A stretch of DNA of 64,000 nt from a virus. Shown piece by piece: positions 13,955 to 48,723 of the stretch. The number at the start of each line of letters is the position of its first letter. The stretch's first letter is position 1. Under the pieces are notes generated by a model. It searched no databases and was not told the origin of the DNA. It saw only the letters and a list, made by a program, of their open reading frames with translations. The stretch spans positions 46,938-110,937 of IMG/VR virus record IMGVR_UViG_3300007512_000012. One strand, given 5' to 3'. The position numbers and the translations under genes were made by a program.

Positions 13955-16838
13955 CTCGTAGCACCTCCTGTGCTGCAAGATACCGAGCTGCCACGCGACG
14001 ACTGCTCTGCTCGAACTCGGGGTGCTCTGCGATCATCTCACCCAGACGCAGAGTATCGGCTAGATAGTGGAGATCGGGGCCGTCCCGGCCCTCGCTCCCC
14101 ATCCGCTTGCGGAACTTCGGGATGTCCCACCGCTTCGAGACGACGTGGTCGAACACCGCCAGGACGTGCTTGCAGGCCCGGTGCTGGCCGCTCGGGTCCT
14201 TCACCTTGGGCTTCGTCGCCAGGCCACGAGCCCGCCCGTAGAGGTAGTCGCCCTGCTTCGCGTGGAACTCCGGCCCCTGCCACTGCCAGAAGGGGCATGA
14301 GCAGCTCACCTTGACGTGGGCCTTCCGCATGTCGCGGACGTTGCCCTTGCGCAGCGCCTTGAGGCGGACCCGGTGTGCGCCCTTCGACCCCTGCACGTCG
14401 AACAGCCACACGGCGTTCTTCGAGTCCACGCGGGCGAGCCTGAGCTTGATGCCCCGGCTGCGGGCCACCAGGTCGGGGCCGCAGCCCTCGCGGATGTCGC
14501 GGATGAGGGCCGCCTGCCGCTGGATGTGCCCGGCCTCTTCACCAGGCAGGACCCGGCTGCCGGGCTCGCCCTTGACCTGGTCCTCGTGCGGGCCGAGCAG
14601 GCCGGGGTCGCCCGGCTTCTTCTTGCGGTCCCGCTTGCCCTTGCTCTTCGGCGTGCCCCGGTCGTACTTCGTGTCCGGGTCCATGTCCGGGGGCCGCTGC
14701 TCGCGGAAGAAGGTGGCGAGCACCTCGGAGGCGAGCTTGTTGACCGCCCCGTAGTAGAAGTCGTCGTCCTCGGGGTCGATGAGCTGGTCGTCGAGGGGCT
14801 CGTCTCCCCACCGCTTGTCGGTCGGGTGCATGAACTCCGACTCGATGGTGTAGAGGTTGACCAGGCTGTCGCCGATCTCCTCCGGGTCGCCATACGCCTC
14901 GATGCCGACCTCGGCGTCGATGAGGCCGAACATGGCGTCCTCGTCCTCCTCCGAGAGGAACCCGGCCACCACCAGGAACTCGCGCACGGGCATCGAGCGC
15001 AACATCCGGCTGCCAGGCTCCACCAGGTAGAAGTGGACCAGTCCGGTCATGCCGCTGATGTTGCGGACGTAGCCGAGCACCAGGTTGCCGTCTTCGGGTG
15101 CATCCGTCCGCACGAAGTCGCCCCCGAGGCCGATCTCCAGCACGAACGCGATGTCCGGGGCGGTGAGCACCTCACCGAGCCGCATCTTGAACCGCTCGGG
15201 GTGCTTGCGGCGAATCTGCTGCTGCTTCTTGAACTGCGGGTTCCGCTTGAGCCGCTTGTACCGCTTGCGCGACTGCTGCCGCGACTTCATCCGGTTGCGC
15301 TTGTAGCGCATCTTTGCCCGGATCTTGTCGATGCCTCGCTGCTTGCGACGCCGCTTGGTCGGCCGCCGCTTGAGCCGGAAGCCCGCGTAGGCCAGCCGGG
15401 TCAGCCAGGTGTCGAACAGGTCGTCGTCCTCGACGATGGGATCGTCCTCGCCGCCCTCGAACTCGAACACCTGGTCGAGGTAGGCGAACAGCTCGTCGGG
15501 GTCTTCGACGACGGCCTCGTCGAGGAACGTCCCGAGGCTCGCCGTGTCCCGGTCACCGTCGTCCCACTCGATGTGGACGGTGCCGAGCGGGCTCACCTCG
15601 ATGATCTCGCCCCACTCCTCCGTGGGGAAGTGCAGGAACGGGATCTCGACGGTGGCGTATGCCCTCTTCTTCGCCTTCTCCCGCTGCCGCTTGCTGCGCT
15701 CGGCGATGTTCCGGGCTCCGCCGCCAGGCCGCCGCTTGTGCCGCTGCGGCAGCTCCTCCCGCCACTCCTTGCGCTGGTTCCACATCCCGTGGTTGCGGAG
15801 CTGCCGCTGGCGGAGCTTCACCTTGCGGAGCTTCGGCCCCCGGTGCGTCCGATACCACTTGCGGTCGTACCGGGCGACCTGTGCCTTCTGCTCTCGCTCC
15901 CGCTGCTGGCCGGAGGGGTGGGGCGAGCGGTAGCGGGGCTTGTAGCTGATGGCCTCGCGGAACAACCACTCGTCGTCGAACTCGTCGAACTCGCCCTCGG
16001 CCGTCATGCCGGGCCGCCGGACAGGGCCTTCCGTCCGGGCCGGGGTCGTCGGGTGGGTCTTGCCGCCGTCGTACTGACCGCCAGGCACGCCCTTCGTCCG
16101 GGCCTTGTCCTTGTGGATCGAGCCGCCGGAGTCACTGCCGGACTCGCCAGGCACGTTGAAGGTCACGGGGCCTTCGACCGGCTTCTTGCGCGACCAGGGC
16201 GGGGAGGGCAGGCCACGGGTCGGGTACTTGCCCGTCCCCGAGGTGTCGCCCGTGTCGGACTTCGTGGGGGACGGGGTCTTCGTCCACGTCTGGACCCCGA
16301 ACTCCTTCTCCGGCTGGATGCCCGCATGTCGCGGGTGCAGGCCGCACATCTCCGGCCGGGGGTCCTTCATCCCCTTCCAGAACGTCGAGACGATACGGGC
16401 GACGCCCCGGTCGTTGACGAAGACCACCTGGAGGTCGCCGATGGTCTTGTCCACCCACTCGACGGGCTCGCCGTAGTTGGTGGCCCGCTGAAAGTCGTTC
16501 CACTGCCAGGACTTCTGCGACTTCCAGTCGTTGAGCTTCTTGCTGAAGTTCCGCAGGGCGACCCGCAGGTCACCGACCGTGATGCCCCGCTGGTCCATCC
16601 GGTACTGCGCGTGGGGCGTGATCTGCATCTGCTTGAAGATGCCGCCGCCCTTCTCGCGCTCCAGGTCGTAGACCTTGCGGGCCTCGGGGTTCGTGAGCTT
16701 GCGGCCGTGCTCGACCTTCTCGGCCAGGTCGTGCTTCAGCCGGGGGCTGCGCACCTCGTCCTCGATGCGCTCGACGACCTGGCAAGGGCCACCGGGCCAG
16801 CCGAGGCTCGGGCTGAGGTCTGCGGCACGCTCCCCCAT
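13947..16838 (-). CDS. Modular 963-aa late protein: DUF4258/RelE-like domain, two basic plus beta-barrel repeats, SWIM zinc finger
   Basis: ITPHAQYRMDQRGI...IVSTF; two Arg/Lys-rich tracts; VSCSCPFW...CKHVLAV; C-terminal RVAARY. Confidence 0.75.
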   Translation of the reverse strand: MGERAADLSPSLGWPGGPCQVVERIEDEVRSPRLKHDLAEKVEHGRKLTNPEARKVYDLEREKGGGIFKQMQITPHAQYRMDQRGITVGDLRVALRNFSKKLNDWKSQKSWQWNDFQRATNYGEPVEWVDKTIGDLQVVFVNDRGVARIVSTFWKGMKDPRPEMCGLHPRHAGIQPEKEFGVQTWTKTPSPTKSDTGDTSGTGKYPTRGLPSPPWSRKKPVEGPVTFNVPGESGSDSGGSIHKDKARTKGVPGGQYDGGKTHPTTPARTEGPVRRPGMTAEGEFDEFDDEWLFREAISYKPRYRSPHPSGQQREREQKAQVARYDRKWYRTHRGPKLRKVKLRQRQLRNHGMWNQRKEWREELPQRHKRRPGGGARNIAERSKRQREKAKKRAYATVEIPFLHFPTEEWGEIIEVSPLGTVHIEWDDGDRDTASLGTFLDEAVVEDPDELFAYLDQVFEFEGGEDDPIVEDDDLFDTWLTRLAYAGFRLKRRPTKRRRKQRGIDKIRAKMRYKRNRMKSRQQSRKRYKRLKRNPQFKKQQQIRRKHPERFKMRLGEVLTAPDIAFVLEIGLGGDFVRTDAPEDGNLVLGYVRNISGMTGLVHFYLVEPGSRMLRSMPVREFLVVAGFLSEEDEDAMFGLIDAEVGIEAYGDPEEIGDSLVNLYTIESEFMHPTDKRWGDEPLDDQLIDPEDDDFYYGAVNKLASEVLATFFREQRPPDMDPDTKYDRGTPKSKGKRDRKKKPGDPGLLGPHEDQVKGEPGSRVLPGEEAGHIQRQAALIRDIREGCGPDLVARSRGIKLRLARVDSKNAVWLFDVQGSKGAHRVRLKALRKGNVRDMRKAHVKVSCSCPFWQWQGPEFHAKQGDYLYGRARGLATKPKVKDPSGQHRACKHVLAVFDHVVSKRWDIPKFRKRMGSEGRDGPDLHYLADTLRLGEMIAEHPEFEQSSRRVAARYLAAQEVLRDA

Positions 16839-16840
16839 CG

Positions 16841-17248
16841 TCAGCTCCCCTTGAGCTGCGCCAGCAAGTAGCGGACGGCCACTCGGTCCATGACCAGGGC
16901 CTCGTGGGAGGCGTAGCGGTGCGCTCCGCCGCCGAAGGCGGGAAGGACCGCCTCGTCCACCTGGGTCTTGTCGTGAAGGGGCAGCCGGGCTTCGAGGAAC
17001 TTCTCGCCCATCTTCGTCAGGGCGAGCGACGTGCGGTCGAGGTCCAGCTCCAGCTTCTCCAGGCGACGGGGGGCCGCCTGGATGAGGTCGCCTGCCACCT
17101 GGTGCAGGTGGTCGGTGTGCTCAGACTGCTCGACGAGCTTCATCGCCCGGTTGACCAGGTGCTTGAGCCGGTGGGCCTCCACACGCGCAGCCACCACGCC
17201 CTCGGTGATGAGAGCCCAGGCTGCCTGGCTGCTCGCTGTCTTCGACAC
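16841..17248 (-). CDS. Helical hypothetical late protein
   Basis: GGAGGAG RBS; N-terminal KTA, C-terminal RVAVRY. Confidence 0.75.
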   Translation of the reverse strand: MSKTASSQAAWALITEGVVAARVEAHRLKHLVNRAMKLVEQSEHTDHLHQVAGDLIQAAPRRLEKLELDLDRTSLALTKMGEKFLEARLPLHDKTQVDEAVLPAFGGGAHRYASHEALVMDRVAVRYLLAQLKGS

Positions 17249-17278
17249 GGGGGCTCCTCCGGTAGGCCGGTTCGGCTT

Positions 17279-17299
17279 CTACCTTCCGCCCCTCATAGG
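17279..17299 (-). promoter_or_regulatory. Putative phage late promoter (CCTAT-N12-GTAG)
   Basis: Copy of the 8-copy motif. Confidence 0.7.
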
Positions 17300-17316
17300 A
17301 GGACTAGCGCCCTCGG

Positions 17317-18720: not shown

Positions 18721-18788
18721 CTAGATCGTCCTCCGCCTGGAGTATGGCCCCATGAACGGGGTGGAACCTGTGAACCCTACCCGGCCAC

Positions 18789-19064: not shown

Positions 19065-19076
19065 GTCGGCTCCCGG

Positions 19077-19766: not shown

Positions 19767-19833
19767 GGGCCATCTACTCCCTGCCCCGCCTCACGGAACC
19801 CCCTGGCCGGGTAGAACAAGGCAGGAGAACACC

Positions 19834-20436: not shown

Positions 20437-20448
20437 TCGGGGCGTCTT

Positions 20449-20490
20449 AAACGACGAAACCCACCGGCCTCCCGAAGGGGCTACGGTGGG
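20449..20490 (-). terminator. Terminator hairpin at the 3' end of the candidate ncRNA
   Basis: cccaccg tagcccc ttcg ggaggc cggtggg followed by tttcgtcgttt on the minus strand. Confidence 0.7.
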
Positions 20491-20921: not shown

Positions 20922-20927
20922 AGGGAG

Positions 20928-21552: not shown

Positions 21553-22425
21553 CTAGCGGGTGACGGTCAGGCGGGCGAGGCCGCGCGGGTTGTAGGCCCC
21601 GAGGCCCAGGTTCTCGAAGATCGAGAAGCCGATCATCCGGCGCTTCGGGTCGTCGGCCGACAGGACCGTCAGCTCGGTGCGGACCGGGATGCGGCCGAAC
21701 ATCTCCGGCTCGCAGCACAGGTACACCGTGCCGTTGGGCACGAGGCGGCTGGTGACGACGTTGGCCCCGTAGATGACCCCCTGGAGGCCCGTCTTCAGGA
21801 GCGTCGCCTGCGACTCGATGTCGAGGATGTCGCGGCCGAACTTGCGGATGTCCGCGTAGTCCCGCGCGTTCATGTAGATGCGGGCGACCCGGAGGTCGTG
21901 CCGCTCGATGAGCGCGAAGGCGTCCGCCAGCACCGCGCCCGAGATCGGGGCGATGACGGGGATGTCGGCGTTGAGCTGACCCGGCAGGGAGTCGAAGCCC
22001 GCCGTGGCGACGGCGTCGAGGACGGCGAAGACGCGCTCGTCCTCGGCGGCCTGGATCTGCGCCCGGCCGAGGTCCTGGGACCGCTCGATCAGGTCGAAGC
22101 GGCGCTCCTTGATCTGGGTGAGCGGGATCTCCGGGTTCGACGCGATCTCGAAGAGCGGGAAGATCACCCGGCGCGGCTTGGTGACCGCGAGGATGTTCTG
22201 GCCCTCTTCGCCGACCACGTAGGCGGTGATGTCGGGGTCCTTGTCGTAGATGGGCAGCGCACCGTCGGGGAGCTGCTCGACCAGGAAGGTCTTGCGGCCC
22301 ACGGCGGCGTAGTCCCGCCGCGTGCGGAGGGGCTGCGTCATCGACGCGGCGAGCTTGGCGCGACCCTGCGGGGTCTTGATGTACTCGCCGATGATCTTCT
22401 GCTTGACGGCGTTGGTGGCGTTCAT
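21553..22425 (-). CDS. Major capsid protein (HK97 fold)
   Basis: Follows protease, scaffold and decoration genes; strong RBS and codon bias; GRAKLAASMTQPLR..DY..VGRK.FLVEQLPDGALPIY, IQAAED, GxIYGANVVTSRLVP, final NPRG. Confidence 0.88.
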   Translation of the reverse strand: MNATNAVKQKIIGEYIKTPQGRAKLAASMTQPLRTRRDYAAVGRKTFLVEQLPDGALPIYDKDPDITAYVVGEEGQNILAVTKPRRVIFPLFEIASNPEIPLTQIKERRFDLIERSQDLGRAQIQAAEDERVFAVLDAVATAGFDSLPGQLNADIPVIAPISGAVLADAFALIERHDLRVARIYMNARDYADIRKFGRDILDIESQATLLKTGLQGVIYGANVVTSRLVPNGTVYLCCEPEMFGRIPVRTELTVLSADDPKRRMIGFSIFENLGLGAYNPRGLARLTVTR

Positions 22426-23351: not shown

Positions 23352-24869
23352 TCAGGAGAAGCTGCCGCTCACGTCCGGGTCGGAGGCCCAGAGGTTCGAC
23401 AGCTCGGCGATCTCGTTGCCGCCGCTGGAGGCGACCTTCGGGACCTGGCCGACCGACTTGACGCCCTTGGACGCCTTGCGGGCCTGCGGCTGGAGGATGG
23501 CCGCGAGGCTGGCCTCCTTGTCGCTGCCCTCGTCGTCGCCCTCGTCCTCGTCCTCGGAGCCGAAGACCTCGTTGAAGGCGGCCTTGTCGGCGGCCGTCAG
23601 CTCGGTCCCGTCCGAGAGGCCCATCGGGTCGAAGCCGGTGGCGAAGAACTCGGCGTCGGAGGCCTCCTTGTCGGAGCCGCCCTCGTCCTCGTCGTCGTCG
23701 CCGCCCTCGTCGTCGGAGCCCTCGTCGTCACCGCCCTCGTCGTCGGAGCCCTCGTCCTCGTCGTCCTCGGACTTCTTGGCGGCCTCCTTGTCGGAGCCCT
23801 CCTCGTCGTCCTCGTCGTCGGAGGCGTTCTTCGAGGCCATCACGTCGCCGCAGGCGATCTCGCCGTCGTCCACCAGCTCGTCGTCCATGCCGTACTGCAT
23901 GGCCTGGAGCATCTCCAGCTCGTCGTCGTCGAACTCGGCGACGTGGCCGAAGGCGGTCTTGTCGGACGCCTCCTTGTCGGAGCCCTCGTCGTCGTCGGAC
24001 TCGTCCTCGGAGCCCTCCTTCTTCTTGGCCTCGCACATCTCCTGCATCTTGCCGTCGAGCTTCTCGCAGCCCGCGAGGACCTCGGCCCGAGCGATGATGC
24101 CGTCGTTGTCGGTGTCGAGGGACGCGAACATGGCGCGGGGGCCGGTCCAGTCCTCGGCCGTCACGAAGCCGTCGCCGTCCAGGTCGAAGGCGTCGAACAT
24201 CGCCATGACGGGGTTCGCGGCCTTGTCCGAGACGGCCGCCTCTTCCTTCTTCGCCTCCTGCTCGGACTTGCCGGAGGTGCCGAGGGTCTCGCCGCCGGGG
24301 TCGTTCTGGTCGGCGCTCTTGAGCGCCTTCAGCTCGGCCTCCATCGCGGCCAGGCGGGCCTCCATCGGGTCCAGGGCCGGGGCCTCGTCCTCGGGGAACA
24401 TCCCGAGCAGCTCCTCCTCCATCGAGAGGAAGTCGCCGCCGAGGCGCTCGACCGAGGCCTCCAGGGCGGTGTCGTCCATGCTCATGTAGCCGAACGCCTG
24501 GTTCTCGATGTCGTCCCACGACGCGGTCTTGCCGAGCGTGGCCCGCGCGAGCACGAGGCACTTGGCCGACTTGCGCCGGACGAGCTGCATCAGGTTGGCC
24601 TGGCGGCCGACCTGCCCGGTGTGGGCCGGGTGGTCCTGGTCCTCGACCCCGTAGCCGGGCGTCGCGGGCGGGCCGCTGTCCCCGTAGGGCGGCGGGTGAA
24701 CGTCCTCGGCGAACTCCGAGGGGCCGCCGATGTTGTAGTCGTCCTTGCCCGGATCGTCCTGGGTGTGGGCCGGGTGGTCCTGGTCCTCGACTCCGTAGCC
24801 GGGGGTTGCGGGGGGAGCAGCCGCCTCACGGTCGAGGGCCGCCCACGTCATGCGCTGACGAGTGCTCAT
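23352..24869 (-). CDS. Putative capsid scaffolding protein, very acidic, with an EF-hand pair
   Basis: Between protease and capsid genes; Asp/Glu-rich repeats, repeated GSDKEA; loops DLDGDGFVTAED and DTDNDGIIARAE. Confidence 0.72.
   Translation of the reverse strand: MSTRQRMTWAALDREAAAPPATPGYGVEDQDHPAHTQDDPGKDDYNIGGPSEFAEDVHPPPYGDSGPPATPGYGVEDQDHPAHTGQVGRQANLMQLVRRKSAKCLVLARATLGKTASWDDIENQAFGYMSMDDTALEASVERLGGDFLSMEEELLGMFPEDEAPALDPMEARLAAMEAELKALKSADQNDPGGETLGTSGKSEQEAKKEEAAVSDKAANPVMAMFDAFDLDGDGFVTAEDWTGPRAMFASLDTDNDGIIARAEVLAGCEKLDGKMQEMCEAKKKEGSEDESDDDEGSDKEASDKTAFGHVAEFDDDELEMLQAMQYGMDDELVDDGEIACGDVMASKNASDDEDDEEGSDKEAAKKSEDDEDEGSDDEGGDDEGSDDEGGDDDEDEGGSDKEASDAEFFATGFDPMGLSDGTELTAADKAAFNEVFGSEDEDEGDDEGSDKEASLAAILQPQARKASKGVKSVGQVPKVASSGGNEIAELSNLWASDPDVSGSFS
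24618..24815 (-). repeat. Two 54-bp direct repeats encoding PPATPGYGVEDQDHPAHT
   Basis: 24618-24671 and 24762-24815; identical peptide with synonymous differences. Confidence 0.9.
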
Positions 24870-26332
24870 CGCTTCGTCTCCTTGCCTGTGGCGACTGCCA
24901 GGGATGGGTTCCTGCTCCCGTTGCGATCCTGGCCTCGCCGCGAGATGAGCTTGCCGAGCTTGATCAAGGTCTGTGCCTCGGCGGTTGTGGGCTTGCGGCC
25001 GAGCGCCGCTCGACAAGCCCGGAGGAATTGACTCGACGAGCTGTACTCGCCGATGTCGCCGAGCTGCGCAGCAGCCCGGTACACAGGCACGGGGATCTCC
25101 ACCCCGTACTCCGCGTGCAGTAGGGCCACCTTGTCCATCAGGTCGGTGTCGCTCGAAGCGTGCCGACAGAGGAAAGCCACAGTGGCGTCGTACACCGCCG
25201 CCTGCTTGACCACGTTGTCGTTGGGAGCCGCCGAAGACTCCTCGGGACCGAGGGCCTCGTCGAGGTCCTTCTGGTCCATGTCCTTCTTGAGCTTCTTCTT
25301 GACCCGATCCCGCATGTGATCGGTCAGCTCACGTTCCATGTCGTCGAACGGGCCGCCCTCGTCCTTCTTCTCGGCCGGGGCGTCCACGTCGTCGTCTTCG
25401 TCGCCCCACCCGGCCATGAAGTGGTCGCCGCCGAAGGCGAGGGCAGCGGCCTTGCGGCGGGTGCCCTTCGTCCACTCCTCCGGGGGAGTCGCGAGGATGG
25501 CCGAGGCGGCCTTGCCGAGCTTGTCGCCCTGGTGGATGGCGAGCACGTTGCGGAGGACCGCGCCCGTGAAGGCGGGGGTGCCGACCCAGGACGCCTCGAT
25601 GAAGTGGACGCCGCCGGTCGGGTCGAGGCTCGGGTGACCGCACAGCTCCGCGACGCGGTGCTGACGCCCCTGCTCGTCGAAGAAGACGTTCCCCTTCTCG
25701 TACTTGATGTGGGGGCACATCTCCGTCTCGTCGGCGGCCCAGTGCCCGCACTTCGTGCAGATGGTGCCATCGACGGTGCAGCCCATCGACAGGGTGCCCA
25801 TCTTGCCGGACTCGATGGCCTCGACCAGGTCCGCGTGCTTGCGGTCCGTGGCGATGAGGATGTCCACGTAGACCGAGTCGCCGATGTCGCGAGCGACCGC
25901 GTCGATGACCCGGCCCTTCGACAGCTCCTCGACCTGGACGTGCTCGACGAAGTTCTGCGCCCCGATGAAGGTCCGGTAGCTCTTGAGCAGAACGTCCCGG
26001 TCCCAGGCGTCGAGGTTGTTGTTGATGAACTTGTCGCAGCCGAGCTTGACCCGGAACTTGCCGTACTTCCGGTTGATCCTGAAGCCGCCCTCGGAGTGCT
26101 TGCCGAGCTTCGTGTTCGGCGGCTCGAAGGTGTCCACCGACGCCACGATGGTCGCGTGGGTCAGCAGGTAGTCGCTCGGGTTGAAGGGCTTGCCGAAGAT
26201 CTCCGACGCGCGGTCGATGAGGTTCTCCGACACCTCCGCAGCGGCCTTGGCGGCCGTGCGAACCTTCGCCCAGCCCGCACGTCCGACGTGCGGGGTGACG
26301 ACCTCAGCCCTGGCGTACTTCAGGAAGGCCAT
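24866..26332 (-). CDS. Prohead (maturation) protease with Cys-rich insertion
   Basis: NNNLDAW, TFIGAQNFVEH (His), KGRVIDA, LSMGC (Ser), CTKCGH...CPH, FIEASWVGTPA; fits HK97/assemblin-type protease motifs. Confidence 0.82.
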   Translation of the reverse strand: MAFLKYARAEVVTPHVGRAGWAKVRTAAKAAAEVSENLIDRASEIFGKPFNPSDYLLTHATIVASVDTFEPPNTKLGKHSEGGFRINRKYGKFRVKLGCDKFINNNLDAWDRDVLLKSYRTFIGAQNFVEHVQVEELSKGRVIDAVARDIGDSVYVDILIATDRKHADLVEAIESGKMGTLSMGCTVDGTICTKCGHWAADETEMCPHIKYEKGNVFFDEQGRQHRVAELCGHPSLDPTGGVHFIEASWVGTPAFTGAVLRNVLAIHQGDKLGKAASAILATPPEEWTKGTRRKAAALAFGGDHFMAGWGDEDDDVDAPAEKKDEGGPFDDMERELTDHMRDRVKKKLKKDMDQKDLDEALGPEESSAAPNDNVVKQAAVYDATVAFLCRHASSDTDLMDKVALLHAEYGVEIPVPVYRAAAQLGDIGEYSSSSQFLRACRAALGRKPTTAEAQTLIKLGKLISRRGQDRNGSRNPSLAVATGKETKR

Positions 26333-27234
26333 CAGGCAGCCTCCACCGGGTTGCCGTCGAGGTCGCAGGCCAGGACTCGGTCGCTGCCGTCACCGTCGAA
26401 GCCGAAGCTCTTGCGGTACTCGGAGTCGTCCGGGTCCACCACGATCTCGAAGCTGTGCCCGACACCACCGATCTTGCCGATGTACGCGAGCATCCGGGCC
26501 ATCGACTCGGCCCCGTCGCCGTTGCCGCTGAACTTCACCGTGAGGGTGCGCTCGTCGGCTGCCGACTTCACCTGCTGGACCAGGTCGAACCCCTGGTCCA
26601 TCGTGCCGTCCCACTCCGCCTGCAAGTCGTTCTGCTGGCCGTCGTCGTTGGGCTCGTAGGCCGGGTCGCCGATGATCTGGTCCCGCTTGATGAGGAACAT
26701 GCAGTGCGGGCACCCGAGCAGGCGGTGGCTCTGGCCGTCCACCCGCTTGTAGTTCGCCGGGCGGAGGTGGATGGGGTTGCCCTCGTCGTCGGCCTTGCAC
26801 TTCGGGCAGGCGTACTTCCCGCCGTCCAGTTCGGCCTTCGTGCCCCGGTAGTGGCGGTCCTTGCTGGCCCAGTAGAGGGCCGACTTGATCCAGGCGTGGC
26901 TGATCCGGTCGATGGACAGGCGGGCAGCCGACTTCGCCACAGGCCCACCAGGCACGCTCACGGTCCCCGCCCCGCCGGGAACCGTGCTGTGCTCTGGATC
27001 GGGCGTCTTCGTGATGATGTCGGTCACCCTCTGCACGTCTTCGACCGGGTAGCGGCCGGAACCCCACGGGAAGTCGATGTCCACCTGGCCGATGCCAGGC
27101 CACACCGCAGTCACCGTCCCCGCCTGCGACTCGTCCGTCGCTCCACCCGCAAGCGGGTACGCCAGGTCACCAACAGCGAACTCGGAGGCCCGCTGCTGGT
27201 AATCGACGAAGACGGTGGCGTGGCGATTCCCCAC
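26332..27234 (-). CDS. Modular hypothetical head-region protein with a zinc ribbon
   Basis: CPKC...CPHC; segments separated by three KSA motifs. Confidence 0.7.
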   Translation of the reverse strand: MGNRHATVFVDYQQRASEFAVGDLAYPLAGGATDESQAGTVTAVWPGIGQVDIDFPWGSGRYPVEDVQRVTDIITKTPDPEHSTVPGGAGTVSVPGGPVAKSAARLSIDRISHAWIKSALYWASKDRHYRGTKAELDGGKYACPKCKADDEGNPIHLRPANYKRVDGQSHRLLGCPHCMFLIKRDQIIGDPAYEPNDDGQQNDLQAEWDGTMDQGFDLVQQVKSAADERTLTVKFSGNGDGAESMARMLAYIGKIGGVGHSFEIVVDPDDSEYRKSFGFDGDGSDRVLACDLDGNPVEAA

Positions 27235-27260
27235 GGTACGACCTCCTGGTCCGAGGCCGG

Positions 27261-28057: not shown

Positions 28058-28078
28058 CTATAACCCTCCCCGTATAGG
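28058..28078 (-). promoter_or_regulatory. Putative phage late promoter (CCTAT-N12-ATAG)
   Basis: Copy of the 8-copy motif. Confidence 0.7.
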
Positions 28079-36545: not shown

Positions 36546-36566
36546 CTGTCGAAGACGGTTCATAGG
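36546..36566 (-). promoter_or_regulatory. Putative phage late promoter variant (CCTAT-N12-ACAG)
   Basis: Copy directly upstream of the polyprotein; upstream gcggtcgtttg nearly identical to the 8087 copy. Confidence 0.6.
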
Positions 36567-36581: not shown

Positions 36582-38297
36582 CTACCCGAACCGGCCGCCG
36601 CCCTCTTCCTGTGGCTTCTCGTACTTCAGCCCGAGGTACTCGGCGATCTTCTCGGCGAAGTCGCTGTTCTCCGCCAGGGCGTCGCCGACCCGCGAGTAGA
36701 GGCCACGGAACAGCTCGTTGAACGTCGCGTCCTGCACGGTGCCCACGTCCTGCATGAGCTTCTCGCGCACCGTCACCGGGTCGAGGTTCAGGTGTTCGAG
36801 GATCGTGTCGATGTCCAGCGAGCCCTTCTGGTAGAGGTTCATCAGGGCGTCGAACGTCTCGGTGTTGTCGCGGAACGACAGCCGGGTGAACGACAAGCGG
36901 GGGACGATGACCTGGAGGTTGCCGTCCTCGTCTTCCTCGACGAACCCCATGCGGGCGCACATCGGCCGGAAGAACTGCTCCTCCACCAACCCCTGCAACG
37001 TCTCCCGGTTGAGCATGAACCGCTGGTTGATGACCTCCAGGTTGATGCGGTCACCGGAGTAGCTGGACTCGCCGGAGAGCAGGCTCTCGGTGACCCCGAG
37101 GCCCGCGTACATCTGGCGGTCGGTGAAGTCGAAGACCCACGACCAGTCGGGGAGCCGCTGGTCCGCCCCCATCTCCTCCCACGTCACCTGGAAGTTGGTG
37201 ATGATGGAGAAGTCGGGGTCCTGAAGGGCCAGGTCCACCTGCTCGCGGAGGTCCTCGGTCTGCTCCGCGTTCATGTCCTCGGCGTAGATGAGCCGGTAGG
37301 GCGTCATGTGCCGCGAGGCGATGGACGTGAGGCTCTGGCGGACCTTGTCGCGGAAGACGAGCGTCCGCAGGCAGCGGAGCAGGATGCTCTTGCCACGGGG
37401 CTCATACTGCGACTTCTTGCGGGCCATCAGGTAGTAGAACGACCCCGCCTCCGGGTCCGTGTTCAGCGGGATGTTCTGCCCCTCGGCGATGGCCGCCACC
37501 ACGTCCTCGGGCATCGAGTTCACGACGCGGGCCGCGTGGGGGTCCCCGGAGGCTGCTCGGTTGATGACCGCCTTCGTCTTCGAGTCGGGGATCAGCTCGA
37601 TGAGCTTCTCGTCCGTGAAGGGGAAGCTCTCGACGTGGATCTGCTCGGGGGGCAGGCAGCGGATGGCCGTCCAGCCCTTGTAGTTCTTCTTGAGCCAGGC
37701 CGCCATGCGCTCGTTGGCGTCCTCGTGCCGGACCTTGCGCTCGACGATCTCACCGTCCTTGGTGATCTCGCGGACGATCTCGAACTCGATGTCCTCCGGC
37801 ATGTCCGGCGAGGTGTCCTCGCAGAAGATGTGGGCCTCGCCGAGCAGGTTCCACTCGTGGTTGATCTCCATCAGCCGGTGAAGGAGCCCCTGCCGCTTCG
37901 CCCAGTTCTCGCAGAAGCGAAGCGACGCAGAGGCGAGCTTCTCGTTGCGGGCCTTCGGCTTGCGGAGGCGGACCTTCGAGAGCGGCAGCTCGTCGAGCAG
38001 GTCGATGGCCTGGCCGACGAAGGGGTCGTGGTCGTAGAAGAAGCGGTAGAAGTTGCGCTTCTCGTCGTCGCTCTGCGGCAGTTCGAGGAAGTCGGTGGAC
38101 AGCTCGGGCGAGTAGAAGTTGCCGCCCGCCCCCATCATGGAGCCGCCCGCAGCACCGCCGTAGCCGCCGCCGACACCGCACGCGGCGGCCTTCATCGACG
38201 ACGTGACGATCTTCGTGGGCTTGCCCACCGTCACACCCTTCCGGTCTGCCACCTTGCGGACGACCGTCGTGTCGTCGGGGTCGTTCGACCTAGCCAT
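36582..38297 (-). CDS. Portal protein
   Basis: Downstream of terminase; RFFY..DPFVGQAIDL...P, EWNLLGEAH, RGKSILLRCL, GLGVTESLLSGE; size fits. Confidence 0.82.
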   Translation of the reverse strand: MARSNDPDDTTVVRKVADRKGVTVGKPTKIVTSSMKAAACGVGGGYGGAAGGSMMGAGGNFYSPELSTDFLELPQSDDEKRNFYRFFYDHDPFVGQAIDLLDELPLSKVRLRKPKARNEKLASASLRFCENWAKRQGLLHRLMEINHEWNLLGEAHIFCEDTSPDMPEDIEFEIVREITKDGEIVERKVRHEDANERMAAWLKKNYKGWTAIRCLPPEQIHVESFPFTDEKLIELIPDSKTKAVINRAASGDPHAARVVNSMPEDVVAAIAEGQNIPLNTDPEAGSFYYLMARKKSQYEPRGKSILLRCLRTLVFRDKVRQSLTSIASRHMTPYRLIYAEDMNAEQTEDLREQVDLALQDPDFSIITNFQVTWEEMGADQRLPDWSWVFDFTDRQMYAGLGVTESLLSGESSYSGDRINLEVINQRFMLNRETLQGLVEEQFFRPMCARMGFVEEDEDGNLQVIVPRLSFTRLSFRDNTETFDALMNLYQKGSLDIDTILEHLNLDPVTVREKLMQDVGTVQDATFNELFRGLYSRVGDALAENSDFAEKIAEYLGLKYEKPQEEGGGRFG

Positions 38298-39096: not shown

Positions 39097-41151
39097 TCAC
39101 CTCCCTCCCCGGCCGCGTGAGCGACCCCGGATCAGGGACCGCTGGCGGTCGGGGCTCGAACCACCGAGCCGAGAGCGGGCCATCGCCTTGCGCCGGGCCT
39201 TCGCCAGCTCGGTCGGCGACGCCTGGCCCTTGTGGCGGCCCTTCTTGCGCGAGGTGCCCGCGATGTACTTCCGCTTGCCCATGTGCTGGGTGGCCTCCCA
39301 CACCATGCGGACCAGGGCGTCGGAGTAGTCGTCGTACTTGTCGGGCTGGTTGGGGGCCTCGACCGTCACGATGTACTTGCTGTGCGTCTCCGCCTGAAGC
39401 TCCAGCAGCTCCTCGATGTAGTCGGCGTGGGCGTTCGGGTTCTCCGGGTTGGGCTGGTCGAACAGCACCAGCTTTTGCTCGAACATCAGGGTCTTGAAGT
39501 TGGCGAAGATCTGGCTGGTGAGCTGCTTCGTGAAGAAGACCGACTCGCACTGCGTCAGGCCGCGCTTGTGCAAGGCCGTCTCGAAGGGGATGCCCGCCCA
39601 CTGGTCGAACATGCCCTTCTCGATGTAGAAGCGGCGGCTCAGGGCGTACAGCCAGGCGGTGATGTCGTCGAAGGACAGCCGCTCCAGGTCTTCGTAGTCG
39701 CCCTCACCTGCCCGGATGCGCTCGATGTAGTCGAGGACGATCCGGTGCTCCTCGTCGATGTGGCCGATGGCGACCGCGCAGTAGTCGCCGTCCACCAGGC
39801 CCGCCGAGATGTCGATGCCCATGAAGTGCGGGGCACGCAGCGGGGCCTTCTGCGCGGGCCGGAGCATCGGGTCCACGCAACGCAGCAGCGGCCCCGGCTT
39901 CAGCCAGCCCTTCGTCCGGTCCGTGAACTCGGCCCCGAACTCCGTGAAGAAGCTGTCCGGGTCGGTGGCGTACTCCTCCGCGAGGAACGTCGCCTCGACC
40001 GTGGGGTTCACCTCCCACGTCGGGGCCTGGATGCAGAGCATGTTCCGCGACTCCAGGCCGCCGGAGTAGCCCTGCCTGAACTTGCGGAAGAAGAAGCCCT
40101 GCTTCCCGAGGGGGGACGAGATCGAGAGGATGCGCCCCTCGACCTTGCCGATGGCCCGCCGCCGGTTGCGGGGGTCCTTCGGCGAGAAGGCCGCCAGCGA
40201 CGGCTTGACGGCCCGGTAGATCGTGAGCGCGTCGCTCTGGCCCACGTCGTTGAAGTGAGCCAGCTCGTCGAGGATGATGACGATGTTGCCTGCACCGCGC
40301 AGGCCCTTCGCCACGCACGACTTGAAGCTGACCTTGATGGTCGCCTTGGCCGTGGGGTCGTCCACGTACCGGCCGAACCGGCTGATGTCCTCCGGCGACT
40401 GGAACTTCGCGTAGGACATCGTGTTGTTGGCGGTGTAGGGCTTGTAGAAGGCGCAGTTCGAGAAGTGGCCGCTGGCCTCGTTGTAGAGCAGACCCGCCTG
40501 GTCCTTGTCCGTCGCCACGCTGATGAGCTGGATGACGTTGGTCTTCGGGATGCCGTAGTACCGCTGCGGGTTGTCCTTGAGGATGAGCTTGTAGACCTCG
40601 TAGGCCATCACGCAGGCGCAGATGAAGGTCTTGCCGGAACGACGGCCGATGGAGAGCACCAGCTCGCGGCGCTCCCGGCCAGGCACCACCTCCTTGATGT
40701 TGCTGCGGCCCTCGGCGTACAGGAACCGGAGGTACTCGGCCTCCGTCATGTAGCGGGGGTTCTCCCGCCGCCAGTCGGTGATCTTGACCCGGAACTTGTA
40801 GAAGCCGGTCTCGTCCTCCATCGCGTCCGGGTAGTCGAGCGGCTCCTCCGGCTCGACTTCATCGGGCAGGAGATCGATCAGCTCGCCGGGCTCGTCCTCA
40901 TCCTCGTCGTCCGGCAGGAACGCGATCTCGTCGTAGTTCGGGTGGTCGGACGGGACCTTCTTCGTGAGGTCCAGGCCCCACGGGTTGTCGTCGAGGGGGA
41001 TGCCGTAGTGGGCCTTCAGGATGACCCGCTGCACGGGATACAAGGGGATGTTGAGTCCCCAGGACGACTCCACGAACTCGATGATGTTCGCTGGCTGCTG
41101 CCCTGTTCGCTCTTGCTTTCCCGCTGCGAGGGCGATGTCCGCCAAGCTCAT
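39097..41151 (-). CDS. terL: Terminase large subunit
   Basis: PVQ adenine motif, GRRSGKT Walker A, IILDE Walker B, ISSP, RNase H MGID...FDQW...DDYSDA. Confidence 0.93.
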   Translation of the reverse strand: MSLADIALAAGKQERTGQQPANIIEFVESSWGLNIPLYPVQRVILKAHYGIPLDDNPWGLDLTKKVPSDHPNYDEIAFLPDDEDEDEPGELIDLLPDEVEPEEPLDYPDAMEDETGFYKFRVKITDWRRENPRYMTEAEYLRFLYAEGRSNIKEVVPGRERRELVLSIGRRSGKTFICACVMAYEVYKLILKDNPQRYYGIPKTNVIQLISVATDKDQAGLLYNEASGHFSNCAFYKPYTANNTMSYAKFQSPEDISRFGRYVDDPTAKATIKVSFKSCVAKGLRGAGNIVIILDELAHFNDVGQSDALTIYRAVKPSLAAFSPKDPRNRRRAIGKVEGRILSISSPLGKQGFFFRKFRQGYSGGLESRNMLCIQAPTWEVNPTVEATFLAEEYATDPDSFFTEFGAEFTDRTKGWLKPGPLLRCVDPMLRPAQKAPLRAPHFMGIDISAGLVDGDYCAVAIGHIDEEHRIVLDYIERIRAGEGDYEDLERLSFDDITAWLYALSRRFYIEKGMFDQWAGIPFETALHKRGLTQCESVFFTKQLTSQIFANFKTLMFEQKLVLFDQPNPENPNAHADYIEELLELQAETHSKYIVTVEAPNQPDKYDDYSDALVRMVWEATQHMGKRKYIAGTSRKKGRHKGQASPTELAKARRKAMARSRLGGSSPDRQRSLIRGRSRGRGGR

Positions 41152-41845: not shown

Positions 41846-41853
41846 GGGGACTC

Positions 41854-42399: not shown

Positions 42400-42408
42400 C
42401 TCGACCTC

Positions 42409-44655
42409 CTACAGGTGCAGCCCGCCGAACAACACGTCGCCGATGTCCTCGGTGATGGCCGGTTCGTCCACCTCGACGCTCATGCTCCCGTCGAGGTTGA
42501 ACTCGCCGGGGTTGAACAGCGACGCGGTGATCTCGTGGTCGGGCGCGTTGGCGACCTGGATCATCTGCTGCTTGAAGGTCGCCGCGTCGGCGGGGAGCTG
42601 GTGCATCAGCTCCTTGCCGTACTTCGTGCAGACGCCGTTGGCGTTCGCCAGGGCGCAGCCCGAGCAGCGGCTCATCGCCTTCACGAAGGGCACCTGGTTG
42701 GCCCGGTGGGCCGCCGCCGCCTTCTCGCAGCCCTTCGTGCCGGTCTTCGAGGCGTAGGCCGCCGCGTCCACGTACAGGTGCCCGGCCAGGCCCTCGTGCT
42801 CCTCCCGCAGCATCGCGATGAGGCCCTCGCCTGCCGCCCGGAGGGGGCTGGCGAACCGGACGTGCATCAGGGCGGTCAGGTCGTCCCCGGTCAGCCCCTC
42901 CGACATCTTCTGCCGGACCCAGCGGGCCATCGAGCGGAACTCGGCGACCTTGATGCCGCTGGCTGCCGACGCCTGGCGCATGGCCTCCTCGTCGGCCGCG
43001 AGCTTCTTGGTCGCCACCCGCTGCTGGAGAGCTGCCGTGCGGACGGCCCCGCCGTACTCCTTCGCGGGCTTCGCGGCGGCCATCTTGACCTTGCGGGTGC
43101 CCGAGGCGTTGGCGTAGGCCGTGGCGACCTTGAGCACCATCTCGGGCGTCGCCTCGGCTGCCGCCGTGCGGGCCTCGTCCACGGTGATCTGGCCCGCCTG
43201 CGCCATCCTCGCGACGGTGGCGTGGGCCTTCTTCATCTGCGCGGCGGCCAGTTCGGCCTGCTTGAGCTGCGCCCAGGCCGCGTCACGGCCCGCCTGGCGG
43301 TGAGCCGTCACCTGCGTCCCGACGCCGCCGTACATGGCCTCTCGGGGCATCTGGTTGGCCCTGGCGAGCTTCTCGGCCGCCTTGCGGAGGTCGGCCGGGT
43401 TGGCGTCGGACTTCGCGATGCGCAGGGCGTCCTGCTTCGAGATGAGCCCGGCGTCGGCCGCCTTCTTCACGAGCTTCAGGGCCGCCGTGCGGGCCTTCGC
43501 CTGGTCGTCGCGGGCGATGACCTGCTGCACCTGGCGGGGAGCCTTCGCAGCGGCCTGCTTGGCCTCGGCGAGGGTCACCCGGTCGGCCGGGGGGGTGTGG
43601 ACCGGCTTCGTGGCGACCACCGGAGCGGCCTCCTTCGGGCCGGTCAGGAAGGCGAGCTGGAGGGTCTTCTTCGGGTCGTCTCCGACGCTGGCGACCTTGT
43701 AGCCCGCCGCCCGCAGGTGCGGGAGGTACTGGCGCAGGGCCTTCCGCCACGGGACCTCGCTGACCATCTGCATCGAGAGCTTCGAGGCGATGCGCGGGTT
43801 GTCGGTGATGACGTACCGGGCGGTGCGGGCGAGCTTCTTCAGCTCCTTCGCCCACTTGCCGTTGTGCAGGCCGGGGAAGGCGGAGGCCCGCACGAAGACC
43901 TTGCCCGCGACCCCGTGCTCCTCGGCGATGCGGGTCGTCGCCTGCTCGGCGGCCTGCTTCGGCAGGTGGGCGTGCAGGTAGCGGCTGATCTCGGTCATCG
44001 ACCGGCCGTAGTGCGACAGGCGCACGGCCTTCTTGATGTGCCAGGCAGCTTCAGCGGCGGACTTCTCGACGCCTGGCGTCGCCGGGACCCCGCTCTCGAT
44101 GGACTTCTCGTAGTCGGCGACGGCCTTGTCCCGGTTCGGGACCAGGGCCAGGCCATCGGTGCGCCGGTTGACGCCCCACGCCTCCTCCAGCTCCAGGGTG
44201 GACTTCAGCGGGGGCTTGTCGGGCCGAAGCTCCTTCGGCAGCCGCTCCGGGTCCTGCTCCTGAGTGGGGTCGAGCCAGGCCAGGTCCGCCATGCTCGCCG
44301 CCTGGCGGACGTTCTCGGCCATGTGCAGGGCACCCTCCTCCGGGGAGAGCATCTGCGAGAGGTCGAAATCGCCCTCGTCGTCCACGAAGGACAGGCCGAG
44401 CCCGTCGTCCGCGCTCTTGCTGTCGGACACGAGACCGTCCGGCAGGGCGGACATGCCGGTGGACTGCGCGGGGGTGATCGGGCCGGACATGCCGGACTGG
44501 TCGCCTCGGCTCCGGGTGCCCTCGCCGAGCGTCTGGTCGTGGTGGAAGCCGTCGAGCCCGTAGTTGGAGCCCTCGGTCCAGGTGAACTCGTCCGCCGGAA
44601 GGTCGGAGTCGGCCATGATGATGTCGGCCCAGGAGGCCAGCTTCTTGTTGCTCAT
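42409..44655 (-). CDS. Large Ala-rich putative internal head protein with a C-terminal Cys cluster
   Basis: Many [KR]xA motifs; duplicated EEH(E)GxAGxxxVxAxA; C...CSGC...CTKY. Confidence 0.72.
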   Translation of the reverse strand: MSNKKLASWADIIMADSDLPADEFTWTEGSNYGLDGFHHDQTLGEGTRSRGDQSGMSGPITPAQSTGMSALPDGLVSDSKSADDGLGLSFVDDEGDFDLSQMLSPEEGALHMAENVRQAASMADLAWLDPTQEQDPERLPKELRPDKPPLKSTLELEEAWGVNRRTDGLALVPNRDKAVADYEKSIESGVPATPGVEKSAAEAAWHIKKAVRLSHYGRSMTEISRYLHAHLPKQAAEQATTRIAEEHGVAGKVFVRASAFPGLHNGKWAKELKKLARTARYVITDNPRIASKLSMQMVSEVPWRKALRQYLPHLRAAGYKVASVGDDPKKTLQLAFLTGPKEAAPVVATKPVHTPPADRVTLAEAKQAAAKAPRQVQQVIARDDQAKARTAALKLVKKAADAGLISKQDALRIAKSDANPADLRKAAEKLARANQMPREAMYGGVGTQVTAHRQAGRDAAWAQLKQAELAAAQMKKAHATVARMAQAGQITVDEARTAAAEATPEMVLKVATAYANASGTRKVKMAAAKPAKEYGGAVRTAALQQRVATKKLAADEEAMRQASAASGIKVAEFRSMARWVRQKMSEGLTGDDLTALMHVRFASPLRAAGEGLIAMLREEHEGLAGHLYVDAAAYASKTGTKGCEKAAAAHRANQVPFVKAMSRCSGCALANANGVCTKYGKELMHQLPADAATFKQQMIQVANAPDHEITASLFNPGEFNLDGSMSVEVDEPAITEDIGDVLFGGLHL

Positions 44656-45239
44656 GGGGAGCCTCCGTCGTCCATCTCGGCTTCCTCGCCCTCGGCCCAC
44701 TCCTCCGGGTCCTCTCGGATCTCGTCCACGTCGTCCATGATCTGCTTGACCTCGCCGCGCTCACGCGGGTTGCCACCAGAGTCATCGACATCCGGGTGCC
44801 AGTGGACCGCCTGCATCTCGTCGTAGATGGTGTCGGTCACGGCCGAGAGGGCCTCGTCGCAGTTGGCGAGCTGCTTGCGGATGTCCTTGATGGGCATCAC
44901 GTAGCCCTTGCCGCCCAGGTTGCCGTCCGGGCTGATGCGCTGCGAGCGGATCTTCGTGAACGTGGATCGGGCCGTCTGGATGTGCCCGAGGGCCATCAGG
45001 GCGGAGCGGAGCACCTTCGCCAGCGGCTTGAGGTGCTTCGCGTTGAAGGCGTAGTCCGGGTCGATGCTGCGCTCGGACGCCTGCGGCGGGTTCCAGCCCC
45101 ACTCGTTGTGGTCGCCTCCCCGGTCCTTGATGAACCGGACCTCGCCCGCCGTCTTCGTCCGAGCCGTCCGCACGGACGCCCGCACGTACCGACGAGCCAG
45201 CCGGTCGATGGCTTCCTTCATCTGGCGGTTGTCGGACAC
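44652..45239 (-). CDS. Hypothetical late protein
   Basis: GGAGG RBS, GTG 45239; N-terminal RLARRY followed by RTARTKTA. Confidence 0.72.
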   Translation of the reverse strand: MSDNRQMKEAIDRLARRYVRASVRTARTKTAGEVRFIKDRGGDHNEWGWNPPQASERSIDPDYAFNAKHLKPLAKVLRSALMALGHIQTARSTFTKIRSQRISPDGNLGGKGYVMPIKDIRKQLANCDEALSAVTDTIYDEMQAVHWHPDVDDSGGNPRERGEVKQIMDDVDEIREDPEEWAEGEEAEMDDGGSP

Positions 45240-45259
45240 GAGCGGCTCACCTCCGGCTT

Positions 45260-45280
45260 CTACAGGACTCGGGATATAGG
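45260..45280 (-). promoter_or_regulatory. Putative phage late promoter (CCTAT-N12-GTAG)
   Basis: Copy of the 8-copy motif. Confidence 0.7.
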
Positions 45281-45295
45281 CTGGATACCAGCGGC

Positions 45296-45928: not shown

Positions 45929-45936
45929 GAGTCACC

Positions 45937-47208: not shown

Positions 47209-47216
47209 CGTCTACC

Positions 47217-47906: not shown

Positions 47907-47920
47907 CGCGGGCTACCTCC

Positions 47921-48397
47921 TCAGGCGCTCGCCCGCAGGGCTCGCAGCTCGGCCAGGCGCTCCGCCTGGTACTCCTCCAGCGAGCTGTACTTGCTGCGGT
48001 CCACGCCGTCCGGCCACCGCTGCTGGATGTACTTCTTGTTGTACTCGGACTTGTTCTTGGCGGAGCCGGTGTCGGGCTTCTTCTGGCCGCCGGGGCCGCC
48101 GTTCGTCGTGACGTAGCAGCGGTCCGCCTCGTTGCCCGTCTCGTAGAAGCACTTGCCCTTGCCCTTGTTGTCGCCGAGCCACTTGCCGGGGTCCTTGACG
48201 TTCTTGGCGTAGTCCGGGTTCGTCTTCGGGTTGTGCGGGTTGAACTGCCGCCCGGCGAACATCTCGTCCAGGTCCCCTGCGAGCATCTCGTCGCCGCAGG
48301 CGCAGGAGGCGTGCCGCCGCAGGAGGGGGACGATGAAGGGCCGCGTCTCGGGAACCTCCGAGGCGATGCGCTTGAGGGTCTGCTTGATCGTGCTCAT
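47921..48397 (-). CDS. Hypothetical late protein
   Basis: AAGGAG RBS; LKRIASE...PLLRRHA leader followed by a hydrophilic region. Confidence 0.7.
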   Translation of the reverse strand: MSTIKQTLKRIASEVPETRPFIVPLLRRHASCACGDEMLAGDLDEMFAGRQFNPHNPKTNPDYAKNVKDPGKWLGDNKGKGKCFYETGNEADRCYVTTNGGPGGQKKPDTGSAKNKSEYNKKYIQQRWPDGVDRSKYSSLEEYQAERLAELRALRASA

Positions 48398-48411
48398 GTG
48401 TGCTCGCTCCT

Positions 48412-48723
48412 TCACCAGATTCCGGTGGTCTCGAAGCCCCGCTTCTCGAACCACTCGCCGAGGGCCTTCAAACCGTCGTGATCTCGGGACCAGAGTTCCA
48501 GTCCGTCGAAGTCGGCCTTGATGCCGAGGTCGGCCACTCGGGGAACCCCCTTCATGGCGACCTTGCCATCACGGAACGAGTACAGGAGGTTCGCGATGTT
48601 GCGGATCTCCTTCGCGCCGTAGAGCACCCTGATCCGATATTCGGGGAAGGAGACGGCACGGAGCCACCGCTGGGCGACCCGCTTCGTCATCAACACCCGC
48701 TTGTCGGAACTGGCCTTGGTCAT
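48412..48723 (-). CDS. Hypothetical late protein
   Basis: AGGAGG RBS; N-terminal RVAQRW. Confidence 0.72.
   Translation of the reverse strand: MTKASSDKRVLMTKRVAQRWLRAVSFPEYRIRVLYGAKEIRNIANLLYSFRDGKVAMKGVPRVADLGIKADFDGLELWSRDHDGLKALGEWFEKRGFETTGIW

Follow-up and report, generated by a model that had tools for sequence, protein, structure and literature searches.

In bacteriophage T4, a short capsid-targeting sequence (CTS) is carried by the internal proteins IPI-III, and Alt is processed by the prohead protease gp21 (reviews PMC3012670 and PMC9026906). Polyvalent proteins with effector-type enzymes are predicted to be packaged in capsids (Iyer, Burroughs, Anand, de Souza, Aravind 2017; PMC5512222), and Alt stands as the tested precedent of a packaged ADP-ribosyltransferase. 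Here we analyze a short peptide, R-[VL]-A-x-R-[YW], that is repeated on unrelated proteins in a 64,000-base stretch of viral DNA (the window, whose coordinates are used below unless another genome is named). The window corresponds to bases 46938-110937 of the 110,937-base IMG/VR record IMGVR_UViG_3300007512_000012, which has a CheckV completeness of ~25%. We refer to the peptide as the tag and to the proteins that bear it as carriers, and we weigh the reading that the tag is an address label for capsid loading.

Tag sites and carrier proteins in the record

Seven canonical sites and two variant sites were found in the window; bit scores are from a 17-column tag profile built from instances in the clade.

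13980-13997, minus strand: tag RVAARY, 10 residues before the stop of the 963-residue protein (15.1 bits)
16868-16885, minus strand: tag RVAVRY, 8 residues before the stop of the 135-residue protein (11.9 bits)
29706-29723, minus strand: tag RVALRW, polyprotein residue 2269, at the end of the GNAT homology block (10.5 bits)
30327-30344, minus strand: tag RLAARW, polyprotein residue 2062, between the topoisomerase IB and GNAT blocks (7.5 bits)
32223-32240, minus strand: tag RVASRY, polyprotein residue 1430, in the poorly conserved stretch 1160-1600 (10.1 bits)
45186-45203, minus strand: tag RLARRY, residues 7-12 of the 189-residue protein (11.0 bits)
48664-48681, minus strand: tag RVAQRW, residues 15-20 of the 103-residue protein (16.4 bits)
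32514-32531, minus strand: weak variant RLCDRY, polyprotein residue 1333, not among the listed profile matches and of uncertain status
26890-26907, minus strand: degenerate tag RISHAW, residue 110 of the 300-residue zinc-ribbon protein, aligning with canonical forms in orthologues

The seven canonical sites had been named in the original prediction, and a six-frame scan returned exactly these, all on the minus strand and in coding frames. Over the whole record the pattern matched seven times in coding frames and twice in the five non-coding frames, and 2000 within-protein shuffles of the whole record gave a mean of 0.12 sites with a maximum of 3. In the profile scan the seven sites scored 7.5-16.4 bits, with the next best match in the record at 0.7 bits; this gap marks the tag as a discrete feature with no compositional tail. 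The obvious worry is that the tag arises by chance, from base composition or at the level of the DNA, in a genome of 68% GC where Arg, Ala, Val and Leu are abundant, and that the pattern was defined post hoc. The excess over the shuffles and the scarcity of matches in five non-coding frames of 111 kb both speak against this. Synonymous codons for the tag, moreover, vary between sites and between genomes, evidence that conservation and selection act on the peptide and not on the DNA, and a DNA-level repeat was ruled out on the same ground.

The canonical sites fall in five proteins, with a sixth added on the grounds given below.

13947-16838, minus strand: carrier, 963-residue protein with a weak SWIM zinc-finger match
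16841-17248, minus strand: carrier, 135-residue helical-hairpin protein
26332-27234, minus strand: probable sixth carrier, 300-residue zinc-ribbon protein between the polyprotein and the protease
28110-36527, minus strand: carrier, 2805-residue polyvalent protein (the polyprotein), directly downstream of the portal
44652-45221, minus strand: carrier, 189-residue conserved protein with the core KTAGEVRF...EEWAEGEE; inferred start, the ATG at 45221
48412-48723, minus strand: carrier, 103-residue alpha/beta protein

Among these families the tag is retained while its surroundings change. Orthologues of the 963-residue protein, which range from 450 to 1230 residues, keep the C-terminal tag despite their varying length; in this family and in that of the 135-residue protein, the tag lies 3-11 residues before the stop, linker and length vary, and some orthologues have two tandem tags. 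The alignment of the 135-residue family (A1) shows a variable, Gly-rich, polar linker followed by the conserved tag, and orthologues of the 103-residue protein keep A-x-[RQ]-W. The 189-residue family, recognized by its conserved core KTAGEVRF...EEWAE, is present in nearly every related locus; the ATG start at 45221 leaves a 74-nt gap to the gene upstream. In this phage the family is tagged at the N terminus only. In one orthologue (L002) the N-terminal copy is degenerate and the C-terminal tag canonical, that of the complete 435.8-kb relative G001 has KVAARH at its N-end and RVAHRY at its C-end, and many further orthologues are tagged at both ends. At the position of RISHAW, orthologues of the 300-residue protein carry RIADRW (L006) or RVAxA[YF]VKKALYWA; these canonical forms make the 300-residue protein probably a sixth, degenerate carrier. 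Its C-terminal zinc-ribbon domain (...KKALYWA...) is encoded in a separate gene here and forms the C-terminal end of a 1000-1350-residue polyprotein in loci L037, L039, L057 and L059 and in the complete relative G003 (53586-57101); it may serve as a conserved domain for anchoring or for incorporation into the head. Matches to the 300-residue protein in the ESM Atlas scored below 0.9.

The polyprotein gene starts 55 nt downstream of the portal gene, and tag-bearing polyproteins directly follow the portal across the clade. Above Pfam cut-offs it contains a CCA-type nucleotidyltransferase (residues 33-155 and 672-727), a 2H phosphoesterase (940-1064) and a topoisomerase IB (1640-1836); a GNAT domain at 2111-2194 falls below the cut-off. 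Thus, several unrelated effector or enzyme domains reside in one polypeptide, whose gene lies beside the portal and terminase packaging genes, as in polyvalent proteins. The internal tags are found where conservation is poor, in the stretches that separate homology blocks, or at the edge of a block, evident by the clustering of homology-block ends at 2241-2280, around the tag at residues 2269-2274. A site orthologous to this tag ("...LSxNYK-RVAxRW") is present in L005, L006 and L069, and one orthologous to the tag at 2062 in L004 and L064. The domain after the tag at 1430 recurs in tagged proteins of G003, one of them small, with the N-terminal sequence M-K-x-Y-x-R-V-A-x-R-Y. The nucleotidyltransferase is split by a LAGLIDADG intein (residues 164-610; 34698-36038, minus strand), and a tblastn search with the polyprotein returned mainly inteins, plus a topoisomerase IB beside the portal in the metagenomic record LR745208.1. 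The intein is missing in about half of related polyproteins, with BLAST coverage falling from ~37 to ~18 matches over this stretch, and the nucleotidyltransferase of G001 is uninterrupted.

Clade-wide conservation, position and portability of the tag

The window has a GC content of 66-70%, and nearly all of its genes are encoded on the minus strand and show a GC3 signature typical of genuine genes; the seven sites, too, lie in frames whose GC1/GC2/GC3 pattern is that of genuine genes. Its major capsid protein (MCP) is an HK97-fold shell protein by its match to phage G gp27 (6WKK_A) and to major-head PHROGs, and is 83-89% identical across five relatives with records 289-619 kb long. Its gene order matches that of G001 at 370-435.8 kb and, continuing, 0-50 kb, which together make up the structural block of that genome. 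The MCP match and this synteny place the source among phage-G-like huge phages of an uncultured clade.

A portal search retrieved 79 related loci, whose portals are 52-85% identical. Most of those with a GC content of 42% or more contain the exact pattern, nearly always on the gene strand, and relatives of 42-48% GC encode the tag with other codons. In loci around the portal, profile matches of at least 7 bits numbered 80 on the coding strand and 3 on the opposite strand. All sampled DNA together yielded 120 sites of at least 7 bits in 107 open reading frames (ORFs), which formed 28 sequence clusters after the tag was masked, so that the carriers are unrelated proteins, as had been claimed at the outset; the tag is found on at least 25 unrelated protein families. 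Its information content spans positions -3 to +8, [SVA]-[ASP]-x-R-[VLI]-A-x-R-[YW]-[LVM], with proline common near +12, and lower-GC relatives have the variants K[VI]ASRY[LM] and RVAxR[HF]L. In the complete genome of G001 (62% GC), 22 sites reach 6 bits or more; they fall in ~19 proteins, and every one is on the coding strand. The complete genome of G003 (45% GC) holds 8 sites.

When a site was counted as terminal if it lay no more than 20 residues from the start or 10 from the stop, 21 of 37 sites in three genomes were terminal, compared to 5.3 expected under a uniform distribution (p ~2e-9); 12 sites were N-terminal, 9 C-terminal and 16 internal. The placement of tags at termini or linkers asserted in the original prediction is borne out by this bias and by the location of the internal polyprotein tags between blocks or at a block edge. 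The strand bias of 80 to 3, the terminal bias and the same peptide encoded by other codons at 45% GC add to the shuffle and frame tests described above; the artefact explanation, to which we assign practically no probability, is already refuted by the shuffles, frames, codons, strand and terminal tests.

AlphaFold2 (AF2) places the tag in a helix in two carriers. The model of the 135-residue protein shows a helical hairpin, a disordered linker at 105-117 (predicted local distance difference test [pLDDT] score <50) and a C-terminal helix at 115-134 that contains the tag (pLDDT ~70); in the 103-residue protein, the tag lies in an N-terminal helix at 7-24, ahead of the alpha/beta domain. These models agree with the earlier proposal of an amphipathic helix at a terminus or linker. 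A Foldseek search with the 135-residue model against BFVD gave no match at E <=0.001. Read by eye as a helical wheel, the tag would present Ala(-2), Val1, Ala2, Tyr/Trp5 and Leu6 on one face, flanked by Arg0 and Arg4, with the variable positions 3 and 7 pointing away from it. A short, basic, terminal amphipathic helix with an aromatic residue is also what a membrane-targeting helix like the terminal helices of MinD or FtsA would look like. Such helices, however, conserve amphipathicity and not sequence. In the family alignments of the tag, by contrast, residues are near-invariant independently of the search pattern, which fixes Arg0, Ala2 and Arg4, and the Ala is invariant in alignments A1 and A2; this near-invariance suggests that the tag fits tightly into a pocket of a protein. 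Its hydrophobic face is also small and includes two alanines, and we regard membrane targeting as very improbable.

The same enzymes occur with the tag in different arrangements. In G001, topoisomerase IB, 2H/CPD and a HAD phosphatase are stand-alone tagged proteins, as opposed to modules of a polyprotein; the CCA-type nucleotidyltransferase of G003 sits in a separate 948-residue protein encoded far from the portal, and is immediately followed by a tag; and in the G001 polyprotein the order of the 2H and nucleotidyltransferase domains is reversed. Since enzymes shift between polyprotein modules and stand-alone tagged proteins, the evolutionary unit is the tag plus a domain. Altogether, the results show that the tag is a portable, position-independent short linear motif under selection at the level of the peptide.

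The carriers are rich in a limited set of enzyme types. Topoisomerase IB was found in 11 of 35 sampled carriers, and PolyA_pol/CCA-type nucleotidyltransferases likewise in 11 of 35; 2H phosphoesterases and tRNA-ligase CPD domains occur in several. Further families are HAD_SAK_1 and a C39-like peptidase in G001, GNAT in this record and in relatives, InPase and PAP2 in relatives, and ART-PolyVal behind an N-terminal tag in G003, the last being a Pfam family named for polyvalent proteins. The record itself covers mainly the structural block. Of the G001 carriers that were scanned against Pfam, none matched a polymerase, helicase or primase family, and two were topoisomerase IB. The carrier enzyme types resemble the effector-type enzymes of polyvalent proteins (PMC5512222).

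Candidate functions of the tag and the surrounding head genes

The tag is best read as an address label for capsid loading, a reading that we favor with moderate confidence. By this account, unrelated enzymes, along with a few conserved proteins of the head region, would all dock through the tag onto a single partner while the head is being assembled; the procapsid would close around the docked carriers, which would later enter the cell with the DNA. The tag itself would be a three-turn amphipathic helix, R-[VLI]-A-x-R-[YW]-[LMV] with a small residue at -2, set behind a flexible linker in the 135-residue carrier, and the 2805-residue protein would be a string of tag-plus-enzyme modules. The partner is presumably a component of head assembly, either the inner wall of the capsid or a core or scaffold protein, and the head protease may afterwards trim the tag.

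The head genes of the window to which this account refers are as follows.

21553-22425, minus strand: MCP, phage G gp27-like (phrog_2522; PDB 6WKK_A, E 2.8e-62), a candidate receptor of the tag
23352-25016, minus strand: very acidic 554-residue protein (25% D+E) with an EF-hand pair and GSDKEAS repeats, in a scaffold-like position between the protease gene and those of the decoration protein and MCP
24866-26332, minus strand: head maturation protease, domain at residues 102-321 (phrog_18299 and phrog_2774), homologous to phage G gp19
36582-38297, minus strand: portal protein (phrog_16240, E 3.6e-30)
39097-41151: large terminase

The carriers encoded here are linked to these genes by a promoter-like motif, CCTAT-N12-RYAG, of which the record has seven copies. 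Four of the seven lie 39-59 nt upstream of carrier units, and another copy heads the operon that runs into the protease gene.

17279-17299, minus strand: copy 51 nt upstream of the 135-residue/963-residue carrier pair
36546-36566, minus strand: copy 39 nt upstream of the polyprotein
45260-45280, minus strand: copy 59 nt upstream of the ATG at 45221 (189-residue carrier)
48745-48765, minus strand: copy 42 nt upstream of the 103-residue carrier
28058-28078 and 8087-8107, minus strand: further copies

By a rough hypergeometric estimate, such an association with carriers has a chance probability of ~1e-5. The carriers of this record, described beforehand as late proteins, are indeed head-region genes that have a promoter-like motif in common with the head-morphogenesis operon. 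Copies in the window lie 13-83 nt upstream of gene starts.

Several observations weigh against capsid loading. In G001 the motif fails as a marker of carriers, with only 2 of 15 CCTAT-N12-RYAG sites upstream of carriers, so that the association is confined to this record. Some half of the G001 carriers have their genes elsewhere than in the structural block (at 61-84, 154, 180 and 242-269 kb); T4 cargo genes are also scattered, and this distribution therefore weakens the case without refuting it. In a profile scan, the MCP, portal, protease and scaffold-like proteins were themselves without the tag. Sub-lineages at 32-39% GC were without it near the portal, as was the head region of phage G, a cultured distant relative, and in Tunturi_5, another cultured distant relative, the back-translated pattern was not in excess (8+8 compared to 9+7 for the control). 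The clade is wholly uncultured, and it is from sequence that we infer packaging, partner and cleavage.

Only the MCP, protease and portal of phage G are homologous to proteins of the clade. A particle proteomics study of phage G (bioRxiv 10.1101/2024.12.16.628780) reports many nucleic-acid enzymes in its particles, so that virions rich in enzymes are plausible for this lineage; the tag is absent from phage G, however, and contamination of the particle preparation is possible. Three proteins of phage G (L140), gp34, gp35 and gp46 (26743-27099, 27109-27432 and 32804-33106), share the ending [LW]KENDRYLAK, placed a few residues ahead of the stop. The three may be no more than paralogues, and a relation of this ending to the R-Y-L part of the tag is unproven.

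The carriers encoded outside the structural block would also fit docking onto a hub other than the capsid: a phage compartment or factory inside the cell, for instance, or a filament of the cytoskeleton, or a host machine. The carriers are nucleic-acid enzymes that could form an RNA-repair or DNA-topology complex, and an actin-like protein is encoded in the record upstream of the window. The densest and most conserved carriers, on the other hand, are the portal-adjacent polyprotein and the head-region proteins, the carriers here have their promoter-like motif in common with the head operon, and the ART-PolyVal carrier matches the paradigm of packaged T4 Alt (PMC5512222). We consider such a hub unlikely.

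A different possibility is that the tag serves first of all to be recognized or cut by a phage peptidase, such as the head maturation protease, and would mark the points at which polyproteins are split and termini trimmed, with addressing secondary or absent. R-V-A itself fits [KR]-x-A, the site that the original prediction had placed often next to the tags. That claim stands in part: [KR][TM]A[SGRTA] is ~5-fold enriched within 20 residues of tags, but this comes to no more than 20 occurrences for 90 tags. On either side of the core of the 189-residue family lies K-[TM]-A-[SGR], and the acidic, scaffold-like 554-residue protein has 7 occurrences of [KR]xA[ST] compared to 0.7 expected. This last enrichment, however, stems from the repeated GSDKEAS unit, and the polyprotein shows none (5 occurrences compared to 4.0 expected). 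Tags that lie 3-10 residues from the C terminus or at residues 1-12 leave little to remove and give processing no obvious purpose, and outside -3 to +8 no residue is fixed at a set distance. The MCP, portal and protease, moreover, lack the tag, and in PDB 6WKK the alignment to the MCP chain of phage G begins at residue 5 of that chain. The data lend weak support to [KR]-x-A as a cut site, since the numbers are small and confounded by local composition. An address that is then cut off is possible; a pure processing signal is less likely, and we hold it to be improbable.

The acidic 554-residue protein was considered as the partner of the tag. Its EF-hand pair is canonical (DLDGDGFVTAED and DTDNDGIIARAE) and conserved in G001, G003, L006, L016, L009, L036 and L066, and the protein may be a calcium-binding scaffold or core protein, judged from these motifs. 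Calmodulin-style binding of basic amphipathic helices by this pair was rejected: the pair is absent from orthologues in the tag-bearing loci L020-23, L025, L014 and L029 and is thus not a universal receptor of the tag. Searches for further relatives of the head genes, by phmmer of the protease against PDB and by megablast of the portal-terminase region against phage records, found nothing. Downstream of the 963-residue carrier, a 141-residue zinc-ribbon protein (CSDKEC...CPDCE; 13553-13978, minus strand) overlaps the end of the carrier gene by 32 nt and is kept at this place in all relatives, with the C-terminal part ...W(S/T)EA.KLA.SKGKDT..Y. Beyond it, the runs 8201-11481 and 11563-13556, both on the minus strand, encode neighboring paralogues with common C-terminal endings; three end ...V(T/V)VYD(D/V)(D/L)G(T/N)..L and two end ...GGCP(Y/F)S(I/L)HGV. 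Both endings recur in relatives L123-L137, and these paralogues could be head or neck fibers.

Should the tag indeed be a capsid-loading label, the injected proteome could be read from sequence: 5-6 proteins in this record and ~19 and 8 in the two complete relatives. These phages would then bring with them a pre-packaged kit of topoisomerase IB, tRNA- and RNA-repair enzymes, acetyltransferases and ADP-ribosyltransferases, which could act in immediate-early counter-defense. The assembly and disassembly of polyvalent proteins in evolution would be explained as the joining and parting of tag-plus-enzyme modules, and a 10-residue handle, usable at either end of a protein, would become available with which to fill large HK97-fold capsids with foreign proteins. 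Should something other than the capsid read the tag, a docking peptide so strictly conserved across more than 25 unrelated families would still define a hub in a clade of very large phages.

Comparison with known cargo-loading systems

In limited, non-exhaustive keyword searches of the literature, we found no paper describing such a tag in huge phages; several known systems nevertheless resemble parts of what is seen here. Encapsulin cargo-loading peptides are usually C-terminal and sometimes N-terminal, are borne by unrelated enzymes or fused cargo, and dock in a pocket on the lumenal face of the shell. Like them, the tag is a short terminal peptide set behind a flexible linker on unrelated enzymes, in the setting of an HK97-fold shell. 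The targeting peptides of encapsulins have a Gly/Ser/Leu-rich consensus, whereas the consensus here is R-V-A-x-R-[YW]-L, and the shell is that of a DNA-filled tailed-phage capsid with a portal and a protease.

The encapsulation peptides of bacterial microcompartments (PduP, PduD and EutC) bind BMC shell proteins and are poorly conserved. As with the tag, they are amphipathic helices (theirs 10-20 residues long) that can stand at the N or C terminus, are attached through a flexible linker and can be moved from one enzyme to another; unlike in microcompartments, no BMC genes are present here. The C-terminal helix of the P22 scaffolding protein and the C-terminal tail of the HK97 protease bind the inner capsid surface and suffice to carry foreign cargo into procapsids. 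The tag is similar to these in being a basic terminal helix or tail, but they belong to single assembly proteins, whereas the tag is spread over as many proteins per genome as enumerated above.

The T4 CTS, to which the tag was likened from the start, fits loosely. It is a short peptide common to unrelated proteins that directs cargo into the prohead, including an injected ADP-ribosyltransferase, and in T4 as in this clade the carrier genes lie both in and outside the head module. The T4 peptide, however, is N-terminal only and ends in [LI]-x-E, whereas the tag has another sequence, is found at either end of proteins or between domains and is followed by no T4-type site, evident by the spread of its positions and by the lack of a conserved Glu at a fixed distance. 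The head lineage also differs, with a phage G-like MCP and protease here.

Polyvalent proteins (PMC5512222) share with the polyprotein a multi-enzyme polypeptide with hypervariable domains encoded by the portal and terminase genes, and ART-PolyVal is found on a tagged protein of a relative. A text search of that paper gave no mention of linkers. In this clade the tag also marks stand-alone proteins, so that fusion and tagging look interchangeable.

We tentatively propose, as a possibility that falls somewhat short of probable, that these 290-620-kb phages possess a general, position-independent cargo-loading peptide for a DNA-filled tailed-phage capsid, encapsulin-like in its working and unlike the N-terminal, protease-coupled T4 CTS, with fusion and free tagging as interchangeable routes. 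In concept the tag matches the T4 CTS, whereas in anatomy, so far as this can be judged by likeness, it is closer to the targeting peptides of encapsulins and microcompartments.

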